Shown: positions 1 to 20,395 of the stretch, piece after piece | Numbering within the stretch: position 1 is the stretch's first letter | Layout: each line of letters starts with the position of its first letter | Source: Escherichia coli | GTDB lineage: Bacteria > Pseudomonadota > Gammaproteobacteria > Enterobacterales > Enterobacteriaceae | Assembly: GCF_017348835.2 (NCBI RefSeq) | Contig: NZ_CP071375.1 | Reading direction: 5' to 3' (one strand) | DNA length: 64,000 bases | Notes under the pieces: model-generated | Seen by the model: the letters and a program-made list of their open reading frames with translations, nothing else | The model's database searches: none | Told to the model about the DNA's origin: nothing | Translations under genes and position numbers: made by a program

Positions 1-643
1 TATAAATTCGCCCGATTGTGGTATTGGATTTACCCAGCGTTTCCGCCAGTTCGACGGGTAAAGGTTGCGTATCGAGAATATCGCCCCCCAACAACACCGC
101 GCGTACGCCAAGTACGTGATCTGACGTTTTGCCATAGACCAGCGATCCCTGACCGGATGCATCGGTATTGATCATCCCGCCGAGCGTTGCCCGGTTACTG
201 GTCGAAAGTTCTGGTGCAAAAAAGTAGCCGAACGGTTTCAGGTACTGATTGAGTTGGTCTTTTATCACCCCGGCCTCAACGCGCACCCAGCCCTCTTCAG
301 GGTTAATTTCGATGATGCGGTTCATATGGCGGGACATATCAACAATAATCCCCTGGTTGAGCGCCTGACCGTTAGTGCCGGTGCCGCCGCCGCGGGGGGT
401 AAAGATCAGCGATGAATAGCGTTCCTGCGCCGCAAGACGGGCGATCAGCGCCACATCTGCGGTTGAACGCGGAAATACCACCGCATCGGGGAGAAGTTGG
501 TAAATACTATTGTCAGTCGACATTGTCAGACGATCGGCATAACTTGTCGCCGTATCGCCGGTAAAACCTTGTTGCTCCAGCTCTTGCAAAAAATTAAGCA
601 CCAGTTGAACGACGCCGGGTGCCTGGGAAATCTGTGGAATCAT
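1..643 (-). CDS. ydiJ: FAD-linked oxidoreductase YdiJ, N-terminal part (gene runs off the window start)
   Basis: Reverse-complement reading gives ATG at 641-643 and N-terminus MIPQISQAPGVVQLV; open to the window edge, so absent from the ORF track. Confidence 0.6.
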   Translation of the reverse strand, partial: MIPQISQAPGVVQLVLNFLQELEQQGFTGDTATSYADRLTMSTDNSIYQLLPDAVVFPRSTADVALIARLAAQERYSSLIFTPRGGGTGTNGQALNQGIIVDMSRHMNRIIEINPEEGWVRVEAGVIKDQLNQYLKPFGYFFAPELSTSNRATLGGMINTDASGQGSLVYGKTSDHVLGVRAVLLGGDILDTQPLPVELAETLGKSNTTIGRIY

Positions 644-1031: not shown

Positions 1032-2144
1032 ATGGTAAATGTTCGTCAGCCCAGGGATGTCGCACAAATTCTGCTTTCGGTGCTGTTTTTAGCCATCATG
1101 ATTGTGGCATGTCTGTGGATTGTTCAACCCTTTATTCTCGGCTTTGCATGGGCCGGTACGGTGGTTATCGCCACCTGGCCGGTATTGTTACGTTTGCAAA
1201 AGATCATGTTTGGCCGCCGCTCTCTCGCCGTTCTGGTGATGACGCTGTTATTAGTGATGGTGTTTATCATCCCTATTGCTTTGCTGGTTAACAGTATCGT
1301 CGACGGCAGCGGCCCGCTAATTAAAGCCATTTCCAGCGGTGACATGACGTTACCCGATCTGGCGTGGCTTAATACCATTCCGGTGATTGGCGCGAAGCTG
1401 TATGCAGGCTGGCACAACTTGCTGGATATGGGGGGGACGGCGATCATGGCGAAAGTCCGCCCTTATATTGGCACCACCACCACCTGGTTCGTTGGGCAAG
1501 CGGCGCATATCGGGCGCTTTATGGTGCATTGTGCGCTGATGCTTCTCTTCAGTGCCCTGCTGTACTGGCGCGGTGAACAGGTGGCACAAGGCATTCGCCA
1601 TTTTGCAACCCGTCTGGCAGGCGTTCGCGGAGATGCCGCCGTGCTGCTGGCGGCACAGGCTATCCGCGCGGTGGCGCTGGGTGTGGTGGTGACGGCGTTA
1701 GTACAGGCAGTGCTTGGCGGTATCGGCCTCGCCGTATCCGGCGTACCTTATGCAACGTTGCTAACGGTGTTAATGATCCTCTCCTGCCTTGTCCAGCTTG
1801 GCCCGTTGCCGGTACTGATTCCGGCGATTATCTGGCTCTACTGGACCGGCGATACCACCTGGGGAACGGTATTGTTAGTGTGGAGCGGTGTGGTTGGCAC
1901 GCTGGATAACGTCATCCGCCCAATGTTAATTCGCATGGGTGCCGATTTACCGCTGATCCTGATCCTCTCTGGCGTTATTGGTGGTTTGATTGCTTTCGGG
2001 ATGATCGGTCTGTTTATTGGTCCGGTTCTGTTAGCCGTTTCCTGGCGTCTGTTTGCCGCGTGGGTGGAAGAAGTCCCGCCGCCGACGGACCAACCGGAAG
2101 AAATTCTCGAAGAACTTGGCGAAATCGAGAAACCGAATAAGTAA
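1032..2144 (+). CDS. ydiK: AI-2E/UPF0118 family inner-membrane transporter
   Basis: 370-aa ORF with multiple hydrophobic helices; position and sequence match YdiK. Confidence 0.85.
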   Translation: MVNVRQPRDVAQILLSVLFLAIMIVACLWIVQPFILGFAWAGTVVIATWPVLLRLQKIMFGRRSLAVLVMTLLLVMVFIIPIALLVNSIVDGSGPLIKAISSGDMTLPDLAWLNTIPVIGAKLYAGWHNLLDMGGTAIMAKVRPYIGTTTTWFVGQAAHIGRFMVHCALMLLFSALLYWRGEQVAQGIRHFATRLAGVRGDAAVLLAAQAIRAVALGVVVTALVQAVLGGIGLAVSGVPYATLLTVLMILSCLVQLGPLPVLIPAIIWLYWTGDTTWGTVLLVWSGVVGTLDNVIRPMLIRMGADLPLILILSGVIGGLIAFGMIGLFIGPVLLAVSWRLFAAWVEEVPPPTDQPEEILEELGEIEKPNK

Positions 2145-2329: not shown

Positions 2330-2435
2330 ACGGTTATAAATCAACATATTGATTTATAAGCATGGAAATCCCCTGAGTGAAACAACGAATTGCTGTGTGT
2401 AGTCTTTGCCCATCTCCCACGATGGGCTTTTTTTT
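2330..2435 (+). ncRNA. rprA: RprA small regulatory RNA (RpoS translational activator)
   Basis: ACGGTTATAAATCAACATATTGATTTATAAGCATGGAAATCCCCTGAGTGAAACAACGAATTGCTGTGTGTAGTCTTTGCCCATCTCCCACGATGGGCTTTTTTTT matches RprA as I recall it, ending in a hairpin plus T8 terminator. Confidence 0.85.
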
Positions 2436-2572
2436 AACATTTTTCCGCTTCGCTACCTCGCCCCTCACTCTTTCCAATAATGTTGCACAAGATACTGTGA
2501 CTCTCTTCAAGCCGTCAGCAAGCTGATAATGTTATTTATATTTTATTGTTTATTTCATGCAGCCATTACACG

Positions 2573-2929
2573 ATGAACGCTTATGAACTCCAGGCACTCC
2601 GCCATATTTTTGCCATGACTATTGAAGAATGCGCGACCTGGATTGCCCAGACCGGTGACAGTGAAAGCTGGCGTCAATGGGAAAATGGCAAGTGTGCCAT
2701 TCCTGATTGTGTAGTCGAGCAACTGTTGGCTATGCGTCAGCAAAGAAAAAAACATCTTCATGCCATCATAGAGAAAATAAATAACCGCATCGGCAACAAC
2801 ACCATGCGTTTTTTCCCCGACTTAACCGCATTTCAACGAGTCTACCCTGATGGCAATTTTATTGACTGGAAGATCTATCAATCGGTAGCCGCTGAATTAT
2901 ATGCACACGATCTGGAGCGGCTTTGTTAA
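2573..2929 (+). CDS. ydiL: DUF1870 small protein, putative HTH regulator
   Basis: ORF track 2546..2929; annotated-length start taken at MNAYELQALRHIF (118 aa). Confidence 0.75.
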   Translation: MNAYELQALRHIFAMTIEECATWIAQTGDSESWRQWENGKCAIPDCVVEQLLAMRQQRKKHLHAIIEKINNRIGNNTMRFFPDLTAFQRVYPDGNFIDWKIYQSVAAELYAHDLERLC

Positions 2930-3028
2930 TTTTTCCACAGAAAGGAATTGTCGTTGTTACAACAATAATGAATGGATACTGACACAACATCGCTACACTT
3001 TTTAAAGCACCTTTGCTAAGTAGAACCT

Positions 3029-4243
3029 ATGAAAAATCCCTATTACCCTACCGCACTTGGGTTGTATTTTAATTACCTGGTGCATGGTATGGGCGTCATT
3101 TTGATGAGCCTGAATATGGCCTCGCTGGAGACACTTTGGCAGACTAATGCCGCGGGTGTCTCGATAGTTATCTCATCGCTGGGCATTGGTCGATTAAGTG
3201 TCTTGCTTTTTGCAGGATTATTATCCGATCGCTTTGGTCGCCGCCCTTTTATCATGCTCGGGATGTGCTGCTATATGGCCTTCTTTTTTGGCATCCTGCA
3301 GACCAATAACATCATTATCGCTTATGTTTTTGGCTTTCTGGCGGGAATGGCAAACAGTTTTCTCGATGCAGGCACTTATCCCAGTTTGATGGAAGCTTTT
3401 CCACGCTCACCGGGGACAGCCAATATTTTAATTAAAGCATTTGTTTCCAGCGGACAATTTTTATTACCGCTAATCATTAGCCTGTTAGTGTGGGCTGAAC
3501 TGTGGTTCGGTTGGTCCTTTATGATTGCTGCAGGCATTATGTTTATTAACGCTCTGTTTTTATACCGTTGTACGTTCCCACCCCATCCGGGTCGTCGCTT
3601 ACCTGTCATAAAGAAAACCACCAGCTCTACGGAACATCGCTGTTCAATTATCGATTTAGCCAGTTATACCTTATATGGCTATATCTCAATGGCAACGTTT
3701 TATCTGGTTAGCCAGTGGCTGGCACAGTACGGACAATTTGTTGCAGGCATGTCATACACTATGTCGATCAAACTACTCAGTATCTACACCGTGGGTTCGC
3801 TGCTTTGTGTATTTATTACCGCTCCACTCATTCGTAATACCGTTCGCCCAACAACATTACTGATGCTGTACACCTTTATCTCATTTATTGCTCTGTTTAC
3901 CGTCTGCCTGCATCCCACATTTTATGTGGTGATAATATTTGCTTTTGTCATTGGTTTTACCTCTGCTGGAGGTGTTGTGCAAATTGGCCTGACGTTAATG
4001 GCTGAACGTTTCCCTTACGCTAAAGGTAAAGCTACAGGGATCTATTACAGTGCGGGCAGTATTGCGACCTTTACTATTCCGTTGATTACGGCTCATCTGT
4101 CCCAAAGAAGTATTGCCGATATTATGTGGTTCGATACCGCCATCGCCGCCGTCGGTTTTTTACTGGCACTATTTATTGGCTTACGCAGCCGTAAAGAAGC
4201 ACAACACCCATCATTAAGGGAAAATGTCGCTACTGGTGCGTAA
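3029..4243 (+). CDS. ydiM: MFS transporter
   Basis: 404-aa ORF with 12-TMS character and the MFS motif GRLSDRFGRR. Confidence 0.85.
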   Translation: MKNPYYPTALGLYFNYLVHGMGVILMSLNMASLETLWQTNAAGVSIVISSLGIGRLSVLLFAGLLSDRFGRRPFIMLGMCCYMAFFFGILQTNNIIIAYVFGFLAGMANSFLDAGTYPSLMEAFPRSPGTANILIKAFVSSGQFLLPLIISLLVWAELWFGWSFMIAAGIMFINALFLYRCTFPPHPGRRLPVIKKTTSSTEHRCSIIDLASYTLYGYISMATFYLVSQWLAQYGQFVAGMSYTMSIKLLSIYTVGSLLCVFITAPLIRNTVRPTTLLMLYTFISFIALFTVCLHPTFYVVIIFAFVIGFTSAGGVVQIGLTLMAERFPYAKGKATGIYYSAGSIATFTIPLITAHLSQRSIADIMWFDTAIAAVGFLLALFIGLRSRKEAQHPSLRENVATGA

Positions 4244-4463
4244 TGCAATATTCTTTTCAGCTCATGCAAGATCTTACGGATAAATTGTTCTTTCTGCACT
4301 AATTAAGGAAAATCGCGATCAAAAACAAACTATCACATGCAATATTCCTGGAAATATAAACTTTATATCATGTACCCATAGAAAATCATCTTCAGTATAG
4401 TGATTATGAAAACCGGCGGAGAACAATACGTACGGTAACGAAATTACCTTTCAGCAAGGAGCT

Positions 4464-5723
4464 GTGAAAATGTCTCAAAATAAGGCTTTCAGCACGCCAT
4501 TTATCCTGGCTGTTCTTTGTATTTACCTCAGTTATTTTCTACACGGCATTAGTGTTATTACGCTTGCCCAAAATATGTCATCTCTGGCGGAAAAGTTTTC
4601 CACTGACAACGCGGGCATTGCCTACTTAATTTCCGGTATCGGTTTGGGGCGATTGATCAGTATTTTATTCTTCGGTGTGATCTCCGATAAGTTTGGTCGT
4701 CGGGCGGTGATATTAATGGCAGTAATAATGTATCTGCTATTCTTCTTTGGTATTCCCGCTTGCCCGAATTTAACTCTCGCCTACGGTCTGGCAGTGTGCG
4801 TAGGTATCGCTAACTCAGCGCTGGATACGGGTGGCTACCCCGCGCTCATGGAATGCTTTCCGAAAGCCTCTGGTTCGGCGGTCATACTGGTTAAAGCGAT
4901 GGCGTCATTCGGGCAAATGTTCTACCCAATGCTGGTGAGCTATATGTTGCTCAATAATATCTGGTACGGCTATGGGCTGATTATTCCGGGTATTCTGTTT
5001 GTACTGATCACGCTGATGCTGTTGAAAAGCAAATTCCCCAGCCAGTTGGTGGACGCCAGCGTAGCTAATGAATTACCGCAAATGAACAGCAAACCGTTAG
5101 TCTGGCTGGAAGGTGTTTCATCGGTACTGTTCGGTGTAGCCGCATTCTCGACCTTTTATGTGATTGTGGTGTGGATGCCCAAATATGCGATGGCTTTTGC
5201 TGGTATGTCAGAAGCTGAGGCATTAAAAACCATCTCTTATTACAGTATGGGCTCGTTGGTCTGTGTCTTTATTTTTGCCGCACTACTGAAAAAAATGGTC
5301 CGGCCCATCTGGGCTAATGTATTTAACTCTGCACTGGCAACAATAACAGCAGCCATTATCTACCTGTACCCTTCTCCACTGGTGTGTAATGCCGGCGCCT
5401 TTGTTATCGGTTTCTCAGCAGCTGGCGGCATTTTACAGCTCGGTGTTTCGGTCATGTCAGAGTTTTTCCCCAAAAGCAAAGCCAAAGTCACCAGTATTTA
5501 TATGATGATGGGTGGACTGGCTAACTTTGTTATTCCGCTGATTACCGGTTATCTGTCGAACATCGGCCTGCAATATATCATCGTTCTCGATTTTACATTC
5601 GCGCTTGTGGCCCTGATTACCGCAATTATTGTTTTCATCCGCTATTACCGCGTCTTCATTATTCCTGAGAATGATGTGCGGTTTGGCGAACGCAATTTTA
5701 ACACCCCAGTTAAGCACAATTAA
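4464..5723 (+). CDS. ydiN: MFS transporter, paralog of ydiM
   Basis: 419-aa ORF sharing motifs with YdiM (SDKFGRR, DTGGYPALMECFP, IGFSAAGG). Confidence 0.85.
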   Translation: MKMSQNKAFSTPFILAVLCIYLSYFLHGISVITLAQNMSSLAEKFSTDNAGIAYLISGIGLGRLISILFFGVISDKFGRRAVILMAVIMYLLFFFGIPACPNLTLAYGLAVCVGIANSALDTGGYPALMECFPKASGSAVILVKAMASFGQMFYPMLVSYMLLNNIWYGYGLIIPGILFVLITLMLLKSKFPSQLVDASVANELPQMNSKPLVWLEGVSSVLFGVAAFSTFYVIVVWMPKYAMAFAGMSEAEALKTISYYSMGSLVCVFIFAALLKKMVRPIWANVFNSALATITAAIIYLYPSPLVCNAGAFVIGFSAAGGILQLGVSVMSEFFPKSKAKVTSIYMMMGGLANFVIPLITGYLSNIGLQYIIVLDFTFALVALITAIIVFIRYYRVFIIPENDVRFGERNFNTPVKHN

Positions 5724-5747
5724 GCATAGAGGTTAAAGGAGTTAATT

Positions 5748-6614
5748 ATGGATGTTACAGCTAAATATGAATTGATTGGGCTGATGGCCTATCCTATCCG
5801 CCACAGTTTATCGCCTGAAATGCAGAATAAAGCCTTAGAAAAAGCGGGATTGCCATTTACCTATATGGCCTTTGAAGTGGATAACGATAGCTTTCCCGGA
5901 GCAATTGAAGGATTAAAAGCTTTAAAAATGCGCGGAACCGGTGTTTCGATGCCCAACAAACAACTGGCGTGTGAATATGTCGATGAATTAACGCCAGCAG
6001 CCAAACTGGTTGGCGCTATCAATACCATCGTTAATGATGACGGTTACCTGCGCGGCTATAACACCGACGGCACGGGCCATATTCGCGCCATTAAAGAGAG
6101 CGGTTTTGATATCAAAGGCAAAACGATGGTGCTGTTAGGGGCCGGAGGTGCCTCAACGGCGATTGGCGCGCAGGGGGCAATTGAAGGTTTAAAAGAAATT
6201 AAACTCTTTAACCGTCGGGATGAGTTCTTCGATAAAGCCCTCGCCTTCGCGCAGCGGGTTAACGAAAACACCGATTGTGTCGTCACGGTTACCGATCTCG
6301 CCGATCAGCAAGCCTTTGCTGAAGCCCTGGCTTCCGCCGACATTTTAACCAATGGCACAAAAGTGGGTATGAAACCCCTTGAGAATGAATCATTAGTTAA
6401 TGATATCAGTCTGTTACATCCGGGACTGCTGGTCACTGAATGCGTGTATAACCCGCATATGACGAAGTTATTGCGGCAGGCGCAACAAGCTGGTTGCAAA
6501 ACGATTGATGGATACGGCATGTTGTTGTGGCAAGGGGCTGAACAGTTCACGTTATGGACTGGCAAAGATTTCCCTCTGGAATATGTTAAACAGGTCATGG
6601 GGTTCGGTGCCTGA
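5748..6614 (+). CDS. ydiB: Quinate/shikimate 5-dehydrogenase, NAD(P)-dependent
   Basis: 288-aa ORF of the AroE-like family; RBS GGAG upstream. Confidence 0.9.
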
Positions 6615-6644
6615 CAGGCTGACCGCGTGCAGAAAGGGTAAAAA

Positions 6645-7403
6645 ATGAAAACCGTAACTGTAAAAGATCTCGTCATTGGTACGGGCGCACCTAAAATCAT
6701 CGTCTCGCTGATGGCGAAAGATATCGCCCGCGTGAAATCCGAAGCTCTCGCCTATCGTGAAGCGGACTTTGATATTCTGGAATGGCGTGTGGACCACTTT
6801 GCCGACCTCTCCAATGTGGAGTCTGTCATGGCGGCGGCAAAAATTCTCCGTGAAACCATGCCAGAAAAACCGCTGCTGTTTACCTTCCGCAGTGCCAAAG
6901 AAGGCGGCGAGCAGGCGATTTCCACCGAGGCTTATATTGCACTCAATCGTGCAGCCATCGACAGCGGCCTGGTTGATATGATCGATCTGGAGTTATTTAC
7001 CGGCGATGATCAGGTTAAAGAAACCGTCGCCTACGCCCACGCGCATGATGTGAAAGTTGTCATGTCCAACCATGACTTCCATAAAACGCCGGAAGCCGAA
7101 GAAATCATTGCCCGTCTGCGCAAAATGCAATCCTTCGACGCCGATATTCCTAAGATTGCGCTGATGCCGCAAAGTACCAGCGATGTGCTGACGTTGCTTG
7201 CCGCGACCCTGGAGATGCAGGAGCAGTATGCCGATCGTCCAATCATCACGATGTCGATGGCAAAAACTGGCGTAATTTCTCGTCTGGCTGGTGAAGTATT
7301 TGGCTCGGCGGCAACTTTTGGTGCGGTAAAAAAAGCCTCTGCGCCAGGGCAAATCTCGGTAAATGATTTGCGCACAGTATTAACTATTTTACATCAGGCA
7401 TAA
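6645..7403 (+). CDS. aroD: 3-dehydroquinate dehydratase, type I
   Basis: 252-aa ORF; sequence and position match AroD. Confidence 0.95.
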
Positions 7404-7548
7404 GCAATAATATTTCGGCGGGAATATCCTCCCCCGCCGAACTAAAAAAAATATATTCAACCGTATTTAATAAAAATATTTCGTGAGTCTCTGTGCGCTA
7501 ATTATCCATCTGGCGTAGGGAAAATCACACCTGAATCAGGAATTAACA

Positions 7549-9144
7549 ATGAAACCTGTAAAACCACCTCGTATTAATGGACGAGTGCCGGTCCTGTCGG
7601 CACAGGAAGCGGTGAATTATATTCCCGACGAAGCAACACTTTGTGTTTTAGGCGCTGGCGGCGGTATTCTGGAAGCCACCACGTTAATTACTGCTCTTGC
7701 TGATAAATATAAACAGACTCAAACGCCACGTAATTTATCGATTATTAGTCCAACAGGGCTTGGCGATCGCGCCGACCGTGGTATTAGTCCGCTGGCGCAA
7801 GAAGGTCTGGTGAAATGGGCATTATGTGGTCACTGGGGACAATCGCCGCGTATTTCTGAACTCGCAGAACAAAATAAAATTATTGCTTATAACTACCCAC
7901 AAGGTGTACTTACACAAACCTTACGCGCCGCCGCAGCCCACCAGCCTGGTATTATTAGTGATATTGGCATCGGGACATTTGTCGATCCACGCCAGCAAGG
8001 CGGCAAACTGAATGAAGTCACTAAAGAAGACCTGATTAAACTGGTCGAGTTTGATAACAAAGAATATCTCTATTACAAAGCGATTGCTCCAGATATCGCC
8101 TTCATTCGCGCTACCACCTGCGACAGCGAAGGCTACGCCACTTTTGAAGATGAGGTGATGTATCTCGACGCATTGGTTATTGCCCAGGCGGTGCACAATA
8201 ACGGCGGTATTGTGATGATGCAGGTGCAGAAAATGGTTAAGAAAGCCACGCTGCATCCTAAATCTGTCCGTATTCCGGGTTATCTGGTGGATATTGTGGT
8301 GGTCGATCCGGATCAAAGCCAACTGTATGGCGGTGCGCCGGTTAACCGCTTTATTTCTGGTGACTTCACCCTTGATGACAGCACAAAACTTAGCCTGCTC
8401 CTAAACCAACGTAAATTAGTTGCACGGCGTGCATTATTCGAAATGCGTAAAAGCGCGGTGGGGAATGTCGGCGTCGGTATTGCTGACGGCATTGGCCTGG
8501 TCGCCCGGGAAGAAGGTTGTGCTGATGACTTTATTCTGACGGTAGAAACAGGTCCGATTGGCGGAATTACTTCACAGGGTATCGCCTTTGGCGCGAACGT
8601 GAATACCCGTGCCATTCTGGATATGACGTCCCAGTTTGATTTTTATCACGGTGGCGGTCTGGATGTTTGTTATTTGAGTTTTGCTGAAGTCGACCAGCAC
8701 GGTAACGTCGGCGTGCATAAATTCAATGGCAAAATCATGGGTACCGGTGGATTTATTGATATCAGTGCCACCTCGAAGAAAATTATTTTCTGCGGCACGT
8801 TAACTGCGGGCAGTTTAAAAACAGAAATTGCCGATGGCAAATTGAATATCGTCCAGGAAGGACGGGTAAATAAATTTATTCGGGAACTACCGGAAATTAC
8901 TTTTAGCGGAAAAATCGCTCTCGAGCGAGGGCTGGATGTTCGTTATATCACTGAGCGCGCCGTATTCACGCTGAAAGAAGACGGCCTGCATTTAATCGAA
9001 ATCGCCCCTGGCGTCGATTTACAAAAAGATATTCTCGACAAAATGGATTTCACCCCAGTGATTTCGCCAGAACTCAAACTGATGGACGAAAGATTATTTA
9101 TCGATGCGGCGATGGGTTTTGTCCTGCCTGAAGCGGCTCATTAA
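7549..9144 (+). CDS. ydiF: Acetate/acyl CoA-transferase (fused alpha/beta subunits)
   Basis: 531-aa ORF of CoA-transferase family I. Confidence 0.9.
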   Translation: MKPVKPPRINGRVPVLSAQEAVNYIPDEATLCVLGAGGGILEATTLITALADKYKQTQTPRNLSIISPTGLGDRADRGISPLAQEGLVKWALCGHWGQSPRISELAEQNKIIAYNYPQGVLTQTLRAAAAHQPGIISDIGIGTFVDPRQQGGKLNEVTKEDLIKLVEFDNKEYLYYKAIAPDIAFIRATTCDSEGYATFEDEVMYLDALVIAQAVHNNGGIVMMQVQKMVKKATLHPKSVRIPGYLVDIVVVDPDQSQLYGGAPVNRFISGDFTLDDSTKLSLLLNQRKLVARRALFEMRKSAVGNVGVGIADGIGLVAREEGCADDFILTVETGPIGGITSQGIAFGANVNTRAILDMTSQFDFYHGGGLDVCYLSFAEVDQHGNVGVHKFNGKIMGTGGFIDISATSKKIIFCGTLTAGSLKTEIADGKLNIVQEGRVNKFIRELPEITFSGKIALERGLDVRYITERAVFTLKEDGLHLIEIAPGVDLQKDILDKMDFTPVISPELKLMDERLFIDAAMGFVLPEAAH

Positions 9145-9157
9145 CAGGAGTATCACG

Positions 9158-10309
9158 ATGGATTTTTCTTTAACTGAAGAACAAGAACTGCTGCTGGCCA
9201 GTATTCGCGAACTGATTACGACTAACTTTCCGGAAGAGTATTTCCGCACCTGCGATCAAAACGGGACATACCCGCGTGAATTTATGCGGGCACTGGCGGA
9301 TAACGGTATTTCCATGCTTGGCGTGCCGGAAGAATTTGGTGGTATCCCTGCGGATTACGTCACCCAGATGCTGGCGCTGATGGAAGTGTCAAAATGCGGT
9401 GCTCCGGCATTTTTGATTACCAACGGTCAATGTATTCACAGTATGCGCCGTTTCGGTTCTGCAGAGCAGCTACGTAAAACGGCAGAAAGCACCCTGGAAA
9501 CGGGTGATCCCGCCTATGCCCTGGCGTTGACGGAGCCAGGCGCAGGCTCAGACAACAACAGTGCCACCACCACTTACACGCGTAAAAACGGCAAGGTTTA
9601 CATCAACGGACAGAAAACCTTTATTACCGGTGCGAAAGAGTACCCATATATGCTGGTGCTGGCGCGCGATCCTGAACCGAATGATCCGAAAAAGGCCTTC
9701 ACACTGTGGTGGGTCGACTCCAGTAAGCCCGGCATTAAGATTAACCCGCTGCATAAAATCGGCTGGCATATGCTCAGCACCTGCGAAGTCTATCTCGACA
9801 ACGTAGAAGTTGAAGAGAGCGACATGGTGGGCGAAGAAGGAATGGGTTTCCTCAATGTGATGTACAACTTTGAGATGGAGCGCCTGATCAACGCCGCGCG
9901 CAGCACCGGCTTTGCCGAATGCGCCTTTGAAGATGCCGCCCGCTATGCCAACCAACGTATCGCTTTTGGTAAACCCATTGGTCATAACCAGATGATCCAG
10001 GAAAAACTGGCGCTGATGGCGATTAAGATCGACAACATGCGCAACATGGTGCTGAAAGTGGCATGGCAAGCCGATCAGCATCAGTCACTGCGCACCAGCG
10101 CGGCGCTGGCAAAACTGTATTGCGCACGTACCGCAATGGAAGCCATTGATGATGCGATTCAAATCATGGGCGGTCTGGGCTATACCGATGAAGCGCGCGT
10201 CTCCCGCTTCTGGCGTGATGTCCGTTGTGAACGTATCGGCGGCGGTACAGACGAAATTATGATTTACGTAGCAGGTCGGCAGATCCTGAAAGACTATCAG
10301 AACAAATAA
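9158..10309 (+). CDS. ydiO: Acyl-CoA dehydrogenase (CaiA-like)
   Basis: ORF track 9104..10309; annotated start taken at MDFSLTEEQELL (383 aa); acyl-CoA dehydrogenase family. Confidence 0.9.
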   Translation: MDFSLTEEQELLLASIRELITTNFPEEYFRTCDQNGTYPREFMRALADNGISMLGVPEEFGGIPADYVTQMLALMEVSKCGAPAFLITNGQCIHSMRRFGSAEQLRKTAESTLETGDPAYALALTEPGAGSDNNSATTTYTRKNGKVYINGQKTFITGAKEYPYMLVLARDPEPNDPKKAFTLWWVDSSKPGIKINPLHKIGWHMLSTCEVYLDNVEVEESDMVGEEGMGFLNVMYNFEMERLINAARSTGFAECAFEDAARYANQRIAFGKPIGHNQMIQEKLALMAIKIDNMRNMVLKVAWQADQHQSLRTSAALAKLYCARTAMEAIDDAIQIMGGLGYTDEARVSRFWRDVRCERIGGGTDEIMIYVAGRQILKDYQNK

Positions 10310-10315
10310 TCTGCA

Positions 10316-10347
10316 GGCGGCGCAGCTTCTTAACAAACTGCGCCGCC
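10316..10347. terminator. Hairpin between convergent ydiO and ydiP
   Basis: GGCGGCGCAG / CTGCGCCGCC 10-bp stem with 12-nt loop. Confidence 0.45.
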
Positions 10348-10351
10348 AGAT

Positions 10352-11263
10352 TTATCCAACAAGACTTACCGGTTGAGGAAATTCAGATAGGATTTCTTGT
10401 TCCGCAAAACAGTTTTTAAATTGCCTGCGGTAATCGCTGGGCGAACAGCCGACATGGCGCAAAAACAGTTTGCCAAAGTGATCGACATTTTCATAACCCA
10501 CACGCCAGGAGATCTCTGCCTGTGATAATTCAGTATTAGTGAGTAACCATTTCGCTTCCGTCATACGCCGTTGAATAACATAGTTAATTGGGGAAATACG
10601 ATACTCTTTGGTAAATTCATGGCAAATATAACTGACGCTGGCACGAAATTTTTTCGATAACTGTTCTAAAGTGATTTTTTCGCGATAATTATTATTCAGA
10701 TAGAAAAGAATATCTTTTATCAGAACATCTTTTTTAATATACCCCTGCTCCGAACGATAAGCATTTTTAAAGTTTTCGTAGTAAAGAATTGCTAATGTAT
10801 AGGCAAATGCATCCCATAACGAAGATGTTTGGCTATTTTTACTTTGCGGCAAAATCACACTTAGCTCATTAAATAAGGTTTTAATGACTTCTTTTCCCTG
10901 CCCCGCGGCAATTACCGGACAAGAATGCGGTTGCAGTAGATGATTTTCCTCAGCCCCCTGAAACTGAAAGCCGTACAGCGCACAGGTACACGTCGTTGCC
11001 GGATCGTTAACGTCAGAGGCCACCGCATGCAGCCTGCCGCGTTCTATCACCACTATATCATCTGCATGCGCGACATATAACGAAGAATCGATGGTAAACC
11101 TTGCCACCCCTTTCTTGACGTAAATCAGCTCGGTTTCATTGTCATGAACGTGATGTCCAGACTCCCATTTTGGATCATCGCTAAATGCAAAACGTGAAAG
11201 CCGTGGCGTTTTACCGGCGACAAACAGCGTTTCACTGGCATTATCAAAACAGCGTTGATACAT
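10352..11263 (-). CDS. ydiP: AraC/XylS-family transcriptional regulator
   Basis: 303-aa ORF with C-terminal AraC HTH and N-terminal cupin-like domain. Confidence 0.85.
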   Translation of the reverse strand: MYQRCFDNASETLFVAGKTPRLSRFAFSDDPKWESGHHVHDNETELIYVKKGVARFTIDSSLYVAHADDIVVIERGRLHAVASDVNDPATTCTCALYGFQFQGAEENHLLQPHSCPVIAAGQGKEVIKTLFNELSVILPQSKNSQTSSLWDAFAYTLAILYYENFKNAYRSEQGYIKKDVLIKDILFYLNNNYREKITLEQLSKKFRASVSYICHEFTKEYRISPINYVIQRRMTEAKWLLTNTELSQAEISWRVGYENVDHFGKLFLRHVGCSPSDYRRQFKNCFAEQEILSEFPQPVSLVG

Positions 11264-11578
11264 GACAACCTCCCTATTCCATGAGCAAGCAAAAACAATA
11301 TATGCCGGATAAAATACGGCGTGTATTGCGGTTATACAACCGCGTTTAGCGAGAGCTAAACAAGATTATTTACACTGAATGCAAGATTGTACGGTCATGG
11401 AATAACTATATTGCCGCAAATTGCACTTTTGTTTTAGCGATCGCATTTTTTTTGCAAGATTGTTGGCAAGGAAAACAGCTTGCTCCGTCGAAAACCCCGC
11501 ACCGCTATCGCACACTATTTTCAGGCCATTTTTACCTTCCATCGGAGATGGTTCCGTATGCGACTCACAGGAGAAATC

Positions 11579-12343
11579 ATGAAAATAATAACCTGCTTTA
11601 AGCTGGTGCCTGAAGAACAGGACATTGTTGTCACTCCAGAATACACCCTGAATTTCGACAATGCCGACGCCAAAATCAGCCAGTTCGATCTCAATGCCAT
11701 TGAAGCTGCAAGCCAGCTTGCAACAGATGACGATGAGATAGCCGCGCTGACCGTTGGCGGCTCATTGTTGCAGAACTCGAAAGTGCGCAAAGACGTGCTA
11801 TCCCGCGGGCCGCACAGCCTGTATTTGGTGCAGGATGCGCAACTTGAACATGCACTGCCTCTCGATACCGCAAAAGCGCTGGCGGCAGCAGTTGAAAGGA
11901 TCGGCTTCGATTTACTGATCTTTGGTGAAGGTTCCGGCGACCTTTATGCCCAGCAGGTTGGCTTGCTGGTCGGAGAAATTCTGCAACTTCCGGTGATGAA
12001 TGCAGTGAGTGCTATTCAGCGTCAGGGCAATACACTGGTGATTGAACGCACGCTTGAAGATGACGTTGAAGTTATTGAACTCTCTGTTCCAGCCGTGCTC
12101 TGCGTCACCTCCGATATTAACGTGCCACGCATTCCTTCGATGAAAGCCATTCTCGGCGCGGGTAAAAAACCGGTAAATCAGTGGCAGGCAAGTGATATTG
12201 GCTGGAGCCAGAGCGCACCACTTGCTGAACTGACCGGCATTCGCGTACCGCCGCAAACAGAACGTAAGCACATCATTCTCGATAACGATTCGCCGGAGGC
12301 CATTGCCGAGCTGGCGGAACATCTGAAGAAAGCCCTGAACTGA
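11579..12343 (+). CDS. ydiQ: Electron-transfer flavoprotein beta-subunit homolog (FixA-like)
   Basis: ORF track 11480..12343; start taken at MKIITCFKLVPEEQD (254 aa). Confidence 0.85.
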   Translation: MKIITCFKLVPEEQDIVVTPEYTLNFDNADAKISQFDLNAIEAASQLATDDDEIAALTVGGSLLQNSKVRKDVLSRGPHSLYLVQDAQLEHALPLDTAKALAAAVERIGFDLLIFGEGSGDLYAQQVGLLVGEILQLPVMNAVSAIQRQGNTLVIERTLEDDVEVIELSVPAVLCVTSDINVPRIPSMKAILGAGKKPVNQWQASDIGWSQSAPLAELTGIRVPPQTERKHIILDNDSPEAIAELAEHLKKALN

Positions 12344-12362
12344 AGCCTACGGAGAAGAAACG

Positions 12363-13301
12363 ATGAGTCAATTAAACAGCGTCTGGGTCTTTAGCGATAA
12401 TCCTGAACGTTATGCTGAACTGTTTGGCGGCGCTCAGCAATGGGGCCAACAGGTGTATGCCATTGTACAAAATACCGACCAGGCGCAGGCAGTTATGCCT
12501 TATGGTCCAAAATGTATTTATGTTCTTGAGCAAAACGACGCGCTGCAACGCACTGAAAATTACGCCGAAAGCATTGCTGCTCTGCTGAAAGATAAACACC
12601 CCGCTATGTTGCTACTGGCCGCGACGAAACGTGGTAAAGCTCTGGCAGCACGGTTAAGTGTGCAACTGAATGCGGCGCTGGTGAACGATGCCACGGCGGT
12701 GGATATTGTCGATGGTCACATTTGCGCCGAACACCGGATGTATGGCGGGTTAGCGTTCGCTCAGGAAAAGATCAACAGCTCGCTGGCGATCATTACCCTT
12801 GCACCCGGTGTTCAGGAACCGTGCACCAGTGATACCTCTCATCAGTGCCCGACAGAAACGGTACCTTACGTTGCTCCGCGTCATGAAATTCTCTGTCGCG
12901 AGCGCCGTGCGAAAGCGGCAAGCAGCGTGGACCTGAGCAAAGCAAAACGTGTGGTTGGCGTCGGTCGTGGTCTGGCATCGCAGGATGACCTGAAAATGGT
13001 CCACGAACTGGCGGCGGTTCTGAATGCTGAAGTCGGCTGTTCACGTCCAATTGCCGAAGGCGAGAACTGGATGGAGCGTGAACGTTATATCGGTGTCTCC
13101 GGCGTGTTGCTGAAATCCGATCTCTACCTGACGCTGGGGATCTCCGGGCAGATCCAGCATATGGTTGGCGGCAACGGCGCAAAAGTGATTGTCGCCATCA
13201 ATAAAGATAAAAATGCGCCAATCTTCAATTATGCCGACTACGGTCTGGTGGGCGATATCTACAAAGTCGTCCCTGCCCTGATTAGCCAGTTGAGCCGCTA
13301 A
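12363..13301 (+). CDS. ydiR: Electron-transfer flavoprotein alpha-subunit homolog (FixB-like)
   Basis: 312-aa ORF of the EtfA family. Confidence 0.9.
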   Translation: MSQLNSVWVFSDNPERYAELFGGAQQWGQQVYAIVQNTDQAQAVMPYGPKCIYVLEQNDALQRTENYAESIAALLKDKHPAMLLLAATKRGKALAARLSVQLNAALVNDATAVDIVDGHICAEHRMYGGLAFAQEKINSSLAIITLAPGVQEPCTSDTSHQCPTETVPYVAPRHEILCRERRAKAASSVDLSKAKRVVGVGRGLASQDDLKMVHELAAVLNAEVGCSRPIAEGENWMERERYIGVSGVLLKSDLYLTLGISGQIQHMVGGNGAKVIVAINKDKNAPIFNYADYGLVGDIYKVVPALISQLSR

Positions 13302-13356
13302 TTCCCCTTTCAACCACATCTCCCGCTGTAAACGCAGCGGGAAGGGAGCATAACGC

Positions 13357-14646
13357 ATGTCGGATGACAAATTTGATGCCATTGTGGTCGGTGCGGGCGT
13401 TGCTGGTAGCGTTGCCGCACTGGTCATGGCGCGAGCCGGGCTGGATGTCCTGGTGATAGAACGCGGCGACAGTGCCGGATGTAAAAACATGACCGGCGGG
13501 CGTCTTTATGCCCACACACTTGAAGCGATTATTCCAGGCTTTGCAGCATCAGCGCCGGTAGAACGCAAGGTCACACGCGAGAAAATCTCCTTCTTAACCG
13601 AAGAGAGCGCCGTTACCCTCGATTTTCACCGCGAGCAACCAGATGTTCCACAACACGCATCTTATACCGTATTGCGTAATCGTCTGGACCCGTGGTTGAT
13701 TGAACAAGCCGAGCAGGCGGGCACGCAGTTTATCCCGGGAGTTCGCGTCGATGCGCTGGTTCGTGAAGGAAACAAGGTCACTGGCGTCCAGGCTGGGGAT
13801 GATATTCTCGAAGCGAATGTGGTGATTCTGGCTGATGGCGTTAACTCGATGCTTGGCCGTTCGCTGGGAATGGTTCCCGCTTCCGATCCGCATCATTACG
13901 CTGTTGGTGTTAAAGAGGTTATTGGCCTGACACCAGAACAGATCAACGATCGCTTTAATATTACGGGCGAGGAAGGTGCCGCCTGGCTGTTTGCCGGTTC
14001 CCCTTCTGACGGCCTGATGGGTGGCGGATTCCTCTATACCAATAAGGATTCCATATCGTTGGGGCTGGTTTGTGGATTGGGTGATATCGCCCATGCGCAA
14101 AAAAGCGTGCCGCAAATGCTGGAAGATTTTAAACAACACCCCGCCATTCGCCCGCTGATTAGCGGCGGTAAACTGCTTGAATATTCCGCGCATATGGTGC
14201 CGGAAGGCGGTCTGGCAATGGTGCCGCAGCTGGTTAACGAGGGCGTGATGATCGTTGGTGACGCCGCAGGCTTCTGCCTGAATTTGGGTTTTACGGTCCG
14301 CGGCATGGATTTAGCCATTGCATCGGCTCAGGCTGCCGCCACAACGGTGATCGCCGCCAAAGAACGCGCGGATTTCTCCGCCAGCAGTCTTGCGCAATAC
14401 AAACGTGAGCTGGAACAAAGTTGTGTTATGCGCGATATGCAGCATTTTCGCAAGATCCCGGCGCTGATGGAAAACCCGCGCCTGTTTAGTCAGTATCCGC
14501 GCATGGTCGCCGACATCATGAACGAGATGTTCACCATTGACGGCAAACCAAACCAGCCGGTACGAAAAATGATCATGGGACATGCGAAGAAAATTGGGCT
14601 GATCAACTTGCTGAAAGATGGCATTAAGGGAGCAACCGCGCTATGA
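13357..14646 (+). CDS. ydiS: FAD-dependent ETF-quinone oxidoreductase homolog (FixC-like)
   Basis: 429-aa ORF with N-terminal FAD fold motif VVGAGVAGS. Confidence 0.9.
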   Translation: MSDDKFDAIVVGAGVAGSVAALVMARAGLDVLVIERGDSAGCKNMTGGRLYAHTLEAIIPGFAASAPVERKVTREKISFLTEESAVTLDFHREQPDVPQHASYTVLRNRLDPWLIEQAEQAGTQFIPGVRVDALVREGNKVTGVQAGDDILEANVVILADGVNSMLGRSLGMVPASDPHHYAVGVKEVIGLTPEQINDRFNITGEEGAAWLFAGSPSDGLMGGGFLYTNKDSISLGLVCGLGDIAHAQKSVPQMLEDFKQHPAIRPLISGGKLLEYSAHMVPEGGLAMVPQLVNEGVMIVGDAAGFCLNLGFTVRGMDLAIASAQAAATTVIAAKERADFSASSLAQYKRELEQSCVMRDMQHFRKIPALMENPRLFSQYPRMVADIMNEMFTIDGKPNQPVRKMIMGHAKKIGLINLLKDGIKGATAL

Positions 14647-14936
14647 GCCAGAACGCTACGGTTAACGTCGACATCAAATTAGGCGTCAATAAATTCCATG
14701 TTGATGAGGGCCACCCGCATATCATTTTGGCGGCAAATCCCGATATCAATGAATTCCGTAAATTAATGAAAGCCTGCCCTGCCGGACTTTATAAGCAGGA
14801 TGACGCCGGCAACATTCATTTTGATTCTGCCGGTTGTCTGGAGTGCGGCACCTGTCGGGTGCTGTGCGGTAACACTATTCTCGAACAGTGGCAATATCCC
14901 GCAGGCACCTTCGGTATTGATTTTCGCTACGGCTAA
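14643..14936 (+). CDS. ydiT: Ferredoxin-like protein (FixX-like)
   Basis: 97-aa ORF with Cys cluster CLECGTCRVLC; 4-bp overlap with the ydiS stop. Confidence 0.9.
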   Translation: MSQNATVNVDIKLGVNKFHVDEGHPHIILAANPDINEFRKLMKACPAGLYKQDDAGNIHFDSAGCLECGTCRVLCGNTILEQWQYPAGTFGIDFRYG

Positions 14937-14989
14937 TCATGCATCCCACAGGCCCGCATCTCGGGCCTGATGTTCTGTTTCGAGAGTCC

Positions 14990-16638
14990 AAAATGAAAGT
15001 GACATTAACGTTTAACGAACAACGTCGTGCGGCGTATCGTCAGCAAGGGCTATGGGGCGATGCTTCGCTGGCCGATTACTGGCAGCAGACCGCTCGTGCG
15101 ATGCCAGACAAAATTGCCGTGGTCGATAATCATGGAGCATCGTACACCTATAGCGCGCTCGATCACGCCGCGAGCTGTCTGGCAAACTGGATGTTAGCGA
15201 AGGGTATTGAATCAGGCGATCGCATCGCATTTCAACTGCCAGGCTGGTGTGAATTTACCGTTATCTATCTTGCCTGCCTGAAAATCGGTGCGGTTTCCGT
15301 ACCGCTGTTGCCTTCCTGGCGGGAAGCAGAACTGGTATGGGTGCTCAATAAGTGTCAGGCAAAATGTTCTTTGCACCGACGTTGTTTAAACAAACGCGTC
15401 CGGTAGATTTAATCCTGCCGCTGCAAAATCAGCTTCCACAACTTCAACAAATTGTCGGCGTGGACAAACTGGCTCCCGCCACCTCTTCCCTCTCATTAAG
15501 TCAGATTATCGCCGACAATACCCCACTGACCACGGCGATAACGACCCACGGCGATGAATTAGATGCGGTGCTGTTTACCTCCGGAACCGAGGGTCTGCCA
15601 AAGGGCGTGATGCTTACGCATAACAATATTCTCGCCAGTGAGCGGGCTTATTGCGCGCGGCTGAATCTGACCTGGCAGGATGTCTTTATGATGCCTGCGC
15701 CACTCGGCCACGCAACGGGCTTTCTGCATGGCGTAACGGCACCATTTTTGATTGGTGCTCGCAGCGTGTTGTTAGATATTTTCACTCCTGATGCGTGTCT
15801 CGCGCTGCTTGAGCAGCAGCGTTGCACCTGTATGCTCGGCGCAACGCCGTTTGTCTATGATCTTTTGAATTTAGTAGAGAAACAACCCGCAGACCTTTCA
15901 GCGCTGCGCTTCTTTCTTTGCGGCGGTACCACAATCCCCAAAAAAGTGGCGCGTGAATGCCAGCAGCGCGGCATTAAATTATTAAGTGTTTATGGTTCCA
16001 CAGAAAGTTCGCCGCATGCGGTGGTGAATCTCGATGATCCTTTGTCGCGCTTTATGCACACCGATGGTTACGCTGCCGCAGGTGTAGAGATTAAAGTGGT
16101 CGATGACGCACGCAAGACCTTACCGCCAGGTTGCGAAGGTGAAGAAGCCTCGCGTGGCCCCAATGTGTTTATGGGGTATTTTGATGAACCTGAATTAACC
16201 GCCCGTGCCCTGGATGAAGAAGGCTGGTATTACAGCGGCGATCTCTGCCGCATGGATGAGGCTGGCTATATAAAAATTACCGGACGCAAAAAAGATATTA
16301 TTGTCCGCGGCGGCGAAAATATTAGCAGCCGTGAAGTGGAAGATATTTTATTGCAGCATCCTAAAATTCACGATGCCTGTGTGGTTGCAATGCCCGATGA
16401 ACGTTTAGGTGAACGATCATGCGCTTATGTCGTGCTGAAAGCGCCGCATCATTCATTATCGCTGGAAGAGGTGGTGGCTTTTTTTAGCCGTAAACGGGTC
16501 GCAAAATATAAATATCCTGAACATATCGTGGTAATCGAAAAACTACCGCGCACTGCCTCAGGTAAAATACAAAAGTTTTTGTTAAGGAAAGATATTATGC
16601 GGCGATTAACTCAGGATGTCTGTGAAGAGATTGAATAA
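14990..16638 (+). pseudogene. fadK: Short-chain acyl-CoA synthetase fadK, disrupted by a -1 frameshift
   Basis: N-terminal frame (track 14939..15406) and C-terminal frame (track 15352..16638) are both FadK sequence but in different frames; they join at ..NKCQAK / MFFAPTLFKQ across the run GGCAAAATGTTC at 15359-15370. Confidence 0.7.
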
Positions 16639-16663
16639 GTTTCATCTTCGGGGATCACATAAA

Positions 16664-16700
16664 CCCGGCGACAAAACGCCGCCGGGTATTTATTTTATTT
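16664..16700 (+). terminator. Putative fadK terminator in the fadK/ppsA convergent gap
   Basis: Hairpin CCCGGCG-acaaaa-CGCCGGG followed by TATTTATTTTATTT. Confidence 0.5.
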
Positions 16701-19073: not shown

Positions 19074-19158
19074 CGAACAATCCTTTTGTGATAAATGAAC
19101 GGTTTGAGAAACACATTTCTGCGCATTTATCTTTGCATATTTAACCGGATGAAAAAAA

Positions 19159-19174
19159 CGGTGAATCGTTCAAG
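19159..19174. promoter_or_regulatory. Putative Cra (FruR) site in the ppsA promoter region
   Basis: GGTGAATCGTTCAAGC resembles the Cra consensus and lies about 90 bp upstream of ppsA. Confidence 0.35.
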
Positions 19175-19405
19175 CAAATATATTTTTTTACTTTTTAAGA
19201 CTGATCCCAGCGTTGCGCAAATCTGCTCTCTTCGACAATTTCCACATAAACCATCGGTATAAACGAAACCATAAAAATGAAATGCTGTTTTCATAAAAAA
19301 TAAAATTGAAGGTTCATTTTATAAACCAGACATAACGTTCTACGCTTCTGTGCGTTTTTAATTTATGCTTTCATAGAATTATGTCTGCATCACGGGAAGA
19401 ACAAA

Positions 19406-20239: not shown

Positions 20240-20250
20240 AGAACTAGTAC
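20233..20250. promoter_or_regulatory. TrpR operator of aroH
   Basis: Near-palindrome GTACTAGAGAACTAGTAC (trp-operator type) overlapping the ppsR stop codon. Confidence 0.6.
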
Positions 20251-20395
20251 ATTAGCTTATTTTTTTGTTATCATGCTAACCACCCGGCGAGGTGTGACAC
20301 ACCTCGCACTTGAAATCAGCAGCGATTGGTTTATCGTGATGCGCATCACTTCCCGGCAGTCCTGCCGTAGAAGCAACAAATTTCTGAGACTTGTA

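Follow-up and report, generated by a model that had tools for sequence, protein, structure and literature searches.

A block of five genes in Escherichia coli, ydiL, ydiM, ydiN, ydiB and aroD, raises the question of what its two transporters, YdiM and YdiN, carry, in which direction, and to what metabolic end. We studied the block in a 64,000-nucleotide (nt) stretch of the E. coli chromosome (contig NZ_CP071375.1, assembly GCF_017348835.2; hereafter the window), where it is an ordinary part of the core genome. Plant food is rich in quinate and shikimate, which gut bacteria are thought to turn into precursors of hippurate, a process for which the genes are poorly defined. The question bears on the physiological role of YdiB, on the status of quinate as a dead-end metabolite in the most carefully curated metabolic model of a bacterium and on the cargo of both carriers.

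An earlier reading of the sequence alone, the original prediction, had described the locus as an uptake-plus-catabolism module for a hydroaromatic compound. The evidence below tips slightly toward a related reading, in which YdiM and YdiN are proton-coupled importers of hydroaromatic acids beside salvage enzymes, in a known block made up of ydiL, ydiM and ydiN-ydiB-aroD. The hydroaromatic link is correct yet already known, because a role for YdiN in moving shikimate or by-products was proposed in 2006 (Johansson and Liden, as cited in PMC4585142) and the phylogenomic clustering was published in 2023 (Khalfaoui-Hassani et al., PMC10588857). The comparative and regulatory details reported here are modest additions, and they make the cargo of the carriers directly testable.

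A carrier sub-family beside shikimate-pathway genes

The original prediction regarded ydiM and ydiN as paralogues, and pairwise comparison of their products bears this out (37% identity over 383 residues, E 4e-85). Both proteins belong to the major facilitator superfamily (MFS), with Pfam MFS_1 scores of 111.5 bits for YdiM and 114.3 bits for YdiN against a cut-off of 33.4, and YdiM is 97.5% identical to its K-12 counterpart. Among the shared blocks put forward as signs of paralogy, those of the YPxLMExFP and IGFxSAGG types are family-specific, although the latter fits YdiM as written (IGFTSAGG) and reads IGFSAAGG in YdiN. In contrast, SD(R/K)FGRR, which occurs in the pair as SDRFGRR and SDKFGRR, is uninformative on paralogy, because it is the generic MFS motif A (GxxxD(R/K)xGR(R/K)) between transmembrane helices 2 and 3 (TM2 and TM3). 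A neighbor-joining tree of 34 family members places YdiM-type and YdiN-type proteins in separate, old clades, each of which holds Firmicute and Orbaceae members, ruling out a recent tandem duplication. Judged by sequence, the two carriers split long ago within a single MFS sub-family.

The AlphaFold model of YdiN has the standard MFS fold, with 12 transmembrane helices (predicted local distance difference test 84.6, predicted template modelling score 0.82; Table 1). Residues Y19 and Y22 in TM1, D119 and E128 in TM4, K142 in TM5 and Q323 in TM10 (YdiN numbering) are nearly or fully invariant in 33 family members and sit on helices that face the MFS cavity in the model. Their placement is as expected for a substrate and proton site, in which they could contact the cargo. 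The top match among solved structures is the D-galactonate:H+ symporter DgoT of E. coli (PDB 6E9N; TM score 0.79, E 1e-10), the cargo of which is likewise a polyhydroxy carboxylate, but the sequence identity between DgoT and YdiN is 17%. The match is silent on specificity, because its score is barely above those of MdfA, GlpT and G6PT; NorA is also among the top fold matches. A sequence search of the PDB with YdiM and YdiN gave no match.

TCDB lists YdiM (2.A.1.15.12) and YdiN (2.A.1.15.13) in the aromatic acid:H+ symporter family (entries as cited in PMC10588857). Like PcaK, BenK and MhpT of TC 2.A.1.15, the cargo of which is ring carboxylates, the two are 12-TM carriers encoded beside enzymes. 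However, their hidden Markov model matches to MhpT and to the aromatic acid:H+ symporter model TIGR00895 are weak (39.1 and 44.2 bits against a TIGR00895 cut-off of 418.55), YdiN scores higher against TsgA (69.9 bits), and the two have a signature of their own, YP(S/A)LME(A/C)F.

This signature worked as a pattern (YP[SA]LME[AC]F) for a homologue scan of one genome per species, which yielded 67 loci with YdiM/YdiN relatives; neighbours were counted within the fetched flanks. A shikimate-pathway gene of any kind occurs at 52 of the 67 loci, many of which come from related genomes and are not phylogenetically independent, and on this count the hydroaromatic part of the original prediction stands. 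YdiB at 45% identity or more is encoded at 45 loci, AroD at 43, shikimate kinase at 9, and two MFS paralogues at 50; a YdiL homologue is encoded in synteny with the transporter genes at 42, Orbaceae included. The loci with shikimate genes belong to Enterobacterales, Orbaceae, Paenibacillus, Bacillus and Clostridia, and such recurrence over three phylum-level groups is far beyond chance. Our count is in line with the published figure of ~75-86% of homologues near shikimate genes, from a study that described ydiM and ydiN as paralogues beside ydiB and aroD and also reported chorismate-mutase fusions (PMC10588857).

The full ydiL-ydiM-ydiN-ydiB-aroD-ydiF-ydiO array is present in Escherichia, Citrobacter, Kosakonia and Intestinirhabdus, as well as in Yersinia, Serratia, Symbiopectobacterium and Dickeya. 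In addition, the carrier gene is found within enzyme operons: in the order ydiB-ydiM-aroD in Pantoea, Paenibacillus and Fonticella; as ydiL-shikimate kinase-ydiM in Serratia, with a 9-nt gap between ydiL and the kinase gene; and as LysR-aroE-ydiL-shikimate kinase-MFS-MFS in Orbaceae. In the Bacillus pumilus group, ydiB is flanked by two MFS paralogues. A co-operonic shikimate kinase would trap the cargo, which argues for import.

A further partner, encoded at 10 loci, is a ~690-residue iron-sulphur flavoenzyme with Oxidored_FMN and Pyr_redox_2 domains. Its gene lies directly upstream of ydiB or of the transporter gene in Pantoea, Paenibacillus, Fonticella, Turicibacter and Clostridiales, and nearby rather than directly upstream in Orbaceae. 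Among solved structures, E. coli 2,4-dienoyl-CoA reductase (FadH) is the nearest relative, and the top NCBIfam match is BaiCD, under its cut-off; the enzyme could possibly be an ene-reductase for dehydroshikimate. The E. coli cluster has no such gene.

The enzymes of the E. coli block are readily identified. YdiB matches NCBIfam NF009390 over its full length (667.6 bits, cut-off 349), as a quinate/shikimate dehydrogenase, and is identical to the K-12 protein at 288 of 289 alignment positions, stop included. AroD is a type I dehydroquinase (TIGR01093, 293.2 bits, cut-off 139.3; Pfam DHquinase_I, 260.1 bits), and aroD is the biosynthetic dehydroquinase gene of E. coli. We found no gene for dehydroshikimate dehydratase or protocatechuate ring cleavage among the 68 annotated features of the window; a xylose-isomerase-like TIM-barrel gene adjoins ydiB in Orbaceae and Metabacillus only. 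The catabolic half of the original prediction therefore falls, and the locus reads as salvage or interconversion, because no enzyme encoded in the window acts past dehydroshikimate. In EcoCyc, moreover, curators class quinate among the dead-end metabolites and accept no transporter for it (PMC3781023).

In the reading that we prefer, YdiM and YdiN would be proton-coupled carriers of polyhydroxy-cyclohexane and -cyclohexene carboxylates (quinate, shikimate and 3-dehydroshikimate), most likely importers that differ in specificity. With NAD+-linked YdiB and AroD converting quinate, 3-dehydroquinate, 3-dehydroshikimate and shikimate into one another, plant hydroaromatics scavenged in this way would enter the common aromatic pathway, a salvage route rather than carbon breakdown. 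YdiL, conserved as a partner of the carriers, probably acts as a local regulator. The co-induction of ydiN, ydiB and aroD and the gut activity of the ydiL promoter fragment, both described below, also speak for this reading.

The direction of transport is further indicated by a deletion phenotype. Loss of ydiN raised the extracellular shikimate titre 1.3-fold and loss of the importer gene shiA raised it 1.1-fold (PMC8788726), and import is favoured over export because the ydiN deletion raised, rather than lowered, extracellular shikimate. YdiM and YdiN are MFS proteins like ShiA, the E. coli shikimate/3-dehydroshikimate:H+ symporter, but ShiA belongs to another MFS family, that of the metabolite:H+ symporters, is not their orthologue, and is not encoded in a cluster with ydiB and aroD. 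The cargo of ShiA has been demonstrated experimentally. The original prediction called YdiM and YdiN uncharacterised, which is right in that their cargo is unproven but overlooks published phenotypes, namely 64Cu uptake and cytochrome bo3 oxidase activity for ydiM (PMC10588857) and the shikimate titre for ydiN (PMC8788726).

Candidate regulators and regulatory DNA

YdiL, described in the original prediction as a small putative regulator, indeed matches the Aca2_YdiL helix-turn-helix family over its entire length (Pfam PF08965, 207.6 bits over residues 1-118 of 118). It also matches the structure of Salmonella YdiL (PDB 1S4K, E 6e-47) and Aca2 structures (E 2e-14), and by this homology is a probable DNA-binding regulator. 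Aca2 is an anti-CRISPR-associated repressor of Pectobacterium phage ZF40, whereas ydiL is a chromosomal core gene between rprA and ydiM, with no acr gene or prophage nearby, and its conserved neighbours encode MFS carriers and shikimate enzymes. Even in Orbaceae, the YdiL protein aligns with E. coli YdiL over its full length, at 35% identity. A word-indexed search for YdiL homologues gave Enterobacterales orthologues alone among the 120 matches listed, and no new contexts. Usher et al. termed ydiL stand-alone and found no prophage or island there, and the 2023 study of ydiM and ydiN does not mention it (PMC10588857).

The spacers of the block measure 99 nt (ydiL-ydiM), 226 nt (ydiM-ydiN), 24 nt (ydiN-ydiB) and 30 nt (ydiB-aroD), and no terminator-like site was found between ydiN, ydiB and aroD. 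Carbon limitation induced the latter three genes together in a strain that makes shikimate (Johansson and Liden 2006, as cited in PMC4585142). Given that ydiL has a promoter of its own and that the 226-nt ydiM-ydiN spacer contains promoter-like elements, the five genes are probably not one operon; they probably form at least two transcription units, ydiL(-ydiM) and ydiN-ydiB-aroD, with the boundaries predicted from the sequence.

Upstream of ydiL lies a 38-nt block, CAATAATGTTGCACAAGATACTGTGACTCTCTTCAAGCC, which does not vary across Escherichia, Citrobacter, Kosakonia and Intestinirhabdus, whereas the sequence on either side of it diverges in the alignment. The block holds an imperfect palindrome, ATgTTG-CA-CAAgAT, built on the half-site CAAGAT, and is a candidate operator. 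The promoter hexamers that follow it (Table 1) are the same as those catalogued for an RpoD-holoenzyme promoter in the rprA-ydiL interval, identified by SELEX (systematic evolution of ligands by exponential enrichment) (PMC3946193). Since rprA lies between ydiK and ydiL, "ydiL" fragments in promoter libraries may include the rprA promoter.

LysR-type regulators control quinate/shikimate clusters elsewhere, as exemplified by QuiR of Listeria and QsuR of Corynebacterium. Similarly, Yersinia, Serratia, Dickeya, Pantoea, Paenibacillus and Orbaceae carry a divergent LysR gene beside those for the transporter, YdiB and AroD, but the E. coli locus has no LysR gene and the window no dehydroshikimate dehydratase or protocatechuate genes. 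Specifically, a 300-residue LysR-family protein is encoded between ydiM and ydiN, divergently from ydiN, in Yersinia, Serratia, Dickeya and Symbiopectobacterium, and homologues with 37-60% identity are encoded beside the transporter in Pantoea, Paenibacillus, Fonticella, Turicibacter, Clostridiales and Orbaceae (21 loci). The gene is absent from the locus in Escherichia, Citrobacter, Kosakonia and Intestinirhabdus, and tblastn found no remnant of it in the E. coli spacer or the rest of the window, only chance matches (E 0.76). Read from these arrangements, the regulator between ydiM and ydiN has been lost in Escherichia, Citrobacter and Kosakonia.

The ydiM-ydiN spacer of the genera without LysR contains a set of conserved sites instead. 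Three operator-like copies of TGCAAKAT, N1 (TGCAATATT), N2 (TGCAAGATCTTACGG) and N3 (TGCAATATTCCTGGA), and a -10-like TATAGT, which may belong to an activator-dependent ydiN promoter, have been kept in Escherichia, Citrobacter, Kosakonia and Intestinirhabdus against a diverging background in the rest of the spacer; at the -10-like hexamer, the columns GTAtAnTnAT are conserved. Upstream of ydiN, such sites are restricted to genera without the LysR gene. Related sites occur in the ydiP-ydiQ spacer, namely CAAGATT, TGCAAGATTGTACGG and TGCAAGATTGTTGGC, with start-to-start spacings of 19 and 73 nt as against 21 and 73 nt for N1 to N3, and two copies are present in this spacer in every genus examined, Yersinia and Serratia included. 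The extended consensus is ttttttTGCAAGATnnnTGGtAAnnAAAACAnATTG, and N3 agrees with the ydiQ-proximal site over ~26 nt in C. amalonaticus. The motif is enriched in the window, with 10 matches against 3.3 expected and none of 100 shuffles reaching 10.

In an ungapped comparison with the 125-nt ydiN operator region, the ydiP-ydiQ region ranks first of 127,502 (58/125 identities, z 5.25), but overall identity is marginal because the runner-up has 57. The proposed kinship of the two regions is thus marginal by identity and draws on the motif itself, on how its copies are spaced and on their conservation from genus to genus. On the simplest reading of these patterns, ydiN-ydiB-aroD would have passed, after loss of LysR, to whichever regulator acts at the ydiQ promoter, the shared repeats standing in the ydiN promoter region in place of the lost LysR. 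YdiP, an AraC-type protein, is the obvious candidate to bind them. The published YdiP study points to cold-shock genes instead, and its chromatin immunoprecipitation (ChIP-seq) supplements make no mention of ydiN, ydiQ, ydiB or aroD; an FNR ChIP site has been reported within the ydiP/ydiQ spacer.

Downstream of aroD, a G+C-rich hairpin would be a weak terminator on the + strand, because an A-tract rather than a U-tract follows it, and read-through into ydiF-ydiO is therefore possible. Other scans were uninformative. Matches to the CRP site (TGTGA-N6-TCACA, at most 2 mismatches) number 25 against 28 expected by chance, and two CRP-like sites near ydiL/ydiM are indistinguishable from chance. A consensus promoter scan gave fewer matches than in shuffles and none ahead of ydiM or ydiN, and a search for inverted repeats with seed 6 in the ydiL-ydiM and ydiM-ydiN spacers gave nothing useful.

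Weighing the explanations

Several points count against import and salvage. We found no transport assay for YdiM or YdiN in the literature searched, and the DgoT match of the YdiN model is barely ahead of drug exporters. ShiA is an established shikimate importer, so YdiM and YdiN may be silent or redundant in the laboratory. Much of the neighbourhood evidence comes from related, non-independent genomes, and E. coli is without the dedicated LysR, which may mean that the module is in decay. No evidence of quinate uptake by K-12 was compelling to EcoCyc curators (PMC3781023). The remaining objections come from literature that gives the carriers other roles.

One such role is that of an overflow valve, in which YdiN, YdiM or both would export intermediates and by-products of the shikimate pathway (quinate, dehydroshikimate, gallate) or else a solvent such as isoprenol. 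The first proposal for YdiN was indeed the export of aromatic by-products (Johansson and Liden 2006, as cited in PMC4585142), and the TCDB entry for YdiM, based on a sensitivity phenotype, is that of a putative isoprenol exporter (as cited in PMC10588857). The weak NCBIfam similarity of YdiM to drug-efflux MFS families and the presence of MdfA and NorA among the top folds fit this idea, but all efflux-family scores are far under their cut-offs, the arrangements with shikimate kinase, ydiB and aroD in many taxa better fit substrate capture, and the extracellular shikimate titre rose upon deletion of ydiN (PMC8788726); we consider export unlikely. Import of copper by YdiM for metallation of bo3 oxidase, with the shikimate neighbours irrelevant to its cargo, we consider highly unlikely, even though the sole direct phenotype of a ydiM deletion is slower whole-cell 64Cu accumulation with a defect in bo3-dependent growth and activity (PMC10588857). 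The authors of that work pointed to the methionine motifs M21xxxxM26 and M76xxM79xxxM83, but stated that binding or transport was not demonstrated, and a cyoB mutant likewise has reduced 64Cu uptake, so the effect may be indirect (PMC10588857). Of the five methionines, M21 alone is conserved in the YdiM clade; M26, M76 and M83 vary among Enterobacterales orthologues, and YdiN is without the motifs. Direct copper transport as a family function is weakened because the proposed ligands are mostly unconserved, and with it the methionine-motif argument for YdiM as a copper transporter. Ubiquinone, the substrate of bo3 oxidase, derives from chorismate, and the bo3 defect could possibly arise indirectly by way of this quinone.

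The E. coli module might also be a largely silent remnant, left after loss of its LysR activator and partner reductase, with only aroD still important. Yersinia, Serratia, Dickeya and Symbiopectobacterium keep the LysR gene, which Escherichia, Citrobacter and Kosakonia lack, ydiL was silent in 22 Salmonella conditions (PMC8434428), and quinate has its dead-end status in EcoCyc (PMC3781023). Moreover, most of the block has been lost beside an IS1 element in at least one E. coli genome, H15 (NZ_CP073949.1), which retains 24% of a 5.1-kb query (2400-7500); the block is dispensable, because ydiL to ydiN and part of ydiB are gone from this genome. However, the query was matched in 5425 of 5426 complete E. 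coli genomes, and 5317 of these 5425 keep at least 80% of it in a single place; the reading frames are intact. The sites of the ydiM-ydiN spacer are conserved over four genera, a sign that regulation is still under selection; a ydiL promoter fragment, which may include the rprA promoter, a point that its authors do not discuss, was on in the mouse gut and off in culture (PMC6561318); and ydiN, ydiB and aroD are inducible (as cited in PMC4585142). We accordingly give the remnant explanation little credence.

A bolder proposal takes in the genes that follow aroD, which encode the CoA transferase YdiF, the CaiA-like acyl-CoA dehydrogenase YdiO (450 bits to the CaiA model), the FixABCX paralogues YdiQRST and the CoA ligase FadK. 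These coenzyme A (CoA) and electron-transfer flavoprotein genes are usually assigned to anaerobic fatty-acid oxidation. From Escherichia to Yersinia, ydiF and the genes beyond it stay joined to ydiN-ydiB-aroD while the upstream flank changes. It is conceivable, though quite improbable, that ydiL to fadK (~2470-16640) form one gut-induced regulon that uses dietary hydroaromatics as an anaerobic electron sink in E. coli. YdiM and YdiN would import quinate or shikimate and perhaps release a reduced product; YdiB and AroD would funnel both compounds to 3-dehydroshikimate, a cyclic enone/enoate; and YdiF, YdiO and YdiQRST would reduce the ring double bond, by analogy with the reduction of carnitine/crotonobetaine by Cai/Fix. 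The FadH/BaiCD-like flavoenzyme would perform the same step in Pantoea, Paenibacillus, Clostridia and Orbaceae, and the two halves would be kept in step through the TGCAAKAT sites of the ydiN and ydiQ promoter regions, to which YdiP or YdiL would bind. The carriers together with YdiF, YdiO, YdiQRST and FadK do repeat the parts list of the E. coli carnitine system caiTABCDE/fixABCX, but the downstream ydi genes are tied to ydiN by synteny and the common sites only, and the literature searched held nothing relevant on a characterised dehydroshikimate or shikimate ene-reductase or a dihydroshikimate pathway.

Gene map and strain variation

Gene coordinates were taken from the RefSeq annotation of strain PE164, a pig isolate that is 100% identical to the window over 2400-7500, from K-12-like records and from the list of open reading frames (Table 1). 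Annotation and reading frames agree with the original prediction that ydiM and ydiN are adjacent and co-oriented, with ydiL before and ydiB and aroD after them. All five genes lie on the + strand, and the predicted limits of the block, 2573 and 7403, coincide exactly with where ydiL starts and aroD stops. RprA was the sole match in an Rfam search of the window.

RefSeq marks ydiN of PE164 (4470-5736) as a frameshifted pseudogene. Relative to K-12, the gene has one additional C near its 3' end, which alters just the last dozen codons; a 71-nt stretch of this 3' end was matched in just 2 of 5426 genomes in a near-identity search. The resulting 417-residue protein ends in ...TPVKHN, a C-terminus that it shares with the proteins of E. 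whittamii, E. albertii and two further Escherichia species. The 421-residue K-12 form, which carries a 1-nt deletion relative to the window, is the derived one because the ...TPVKHN end is common to these other species. By this comparison, ydiN is intact here and the frameshift flag looks like an artefact of comparison with a K-12-type protein. This probable artefact, like the LysR loss, the TGCAAKAT sites, the ydiL-kinase operons and the FadH-like partner, is undescribed in the literature searched.

Table 1. Features of the ydiL-aroD region and of homologous loci. Positions refer to the window unless a homologous locus or YdiN residues are named.
Feature	Position	Strand	Remarks
ydiK	1032-2144		annotation
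rprA, small RNA	2330-2437		Rfam, 118.5 bits
rprA terminator	2408-2427, then T8		strong; between ydiK and ydiL
Candidate operator, 38-nt block	2474-2513	+	upstream of ydiL; alignment
ydiL promoter, -35 CTGATA	2523-2528	+	just after the 38-nt block
ydiL promoter, -10 TATTGT	2544-2549	+	15-nt spacer to -35
ydiL	2573-2929	+	118 residues, Aca2/YdiL-family helix-turn-helix protein
ydiM	3029-4243	+	404-residue MFS carrier, M-type clade
Operator-like site N1	4244-4252	+	ydiM-ydiN spacer
Operator-like site N2	4265-4279	+	ydiM-ydiN spacer
Operator-like site N3	4338-4352	+	132 nt ahead of ydiN ATG
-10-like TATAGT	4396-4401	+	putative ydiN promoter; weak -35
ydiN	4470-5723	+	417-residue MFS carrier, N-type clade; alternative start GTG 4464
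ydiB	5748-6614	+	NAD(P)-dependent quinate/shikimate dehydrogenase
aroD	6645-7403	+	type I 3-dehydroquinate dehydratase
G+C-rich hairpin	7414-7441		after aroD; A-tract follows on + strand
ydiF	7549-9144		annotation
ydiO	9158-10309		annotation
ydiP	10352-11263	-	AraC-family regulator; annotation and AraC-type C-terminal domain matches
Site CAAGATT	11361	+	ydiP-ydiQ spacer
Site TGCAAGATTGTACGG	11380-11394	+	ydiP-ydiQ spacer
Site TGCAAGATTGTTGGC	11453-11467	+	ydiP-ydiQ spacer
ydiQRST, fadK	after ydiP		annotation
YdiN model helices, first half	residues 12-42, 47-75, 77-97, 101-129, 131-161, 168-186		then loop
YdiN model helices, second half	residues 211-244, 248-275, 279-299, 303-332, 337-365, 367-395
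LysR gene	locus L024, 11369-12271	-
LysR gene	locus L026, 11292-12191	-
LysR homologues	loci L031, L034-L036, L038, L039, L043, L044, L047
FadH/BaiCD-like flavoenzyme	locus L031, 7067-9115
FadH/BaiCD-like flavoenzyme	locus L038, 7742-9829
FadH/BaiCD-like flavoenzyme	locus L047, 18956-20998

Farther along the window, fadK (14993-16638), which encodes a medium-chain fatty-acid CoA ligase, is flagged as frameshifted in the identical strain PE164. Genes for phosphoenolpyruvate synthase (ppsA), ppsR and the tryptophan-sensitive DAHP synthase (aroH) follow at 16695-21442, ~9-14 kb past aroD, so that supply genes of the aromatic pathway are loosely grouped in the region. Two strain-variable accessory elements are also present: espL1, a type III secretion effector gene between thrS and yniD (35054-36952), and an IS3-family element between ydjO and cedA (45163-46376).

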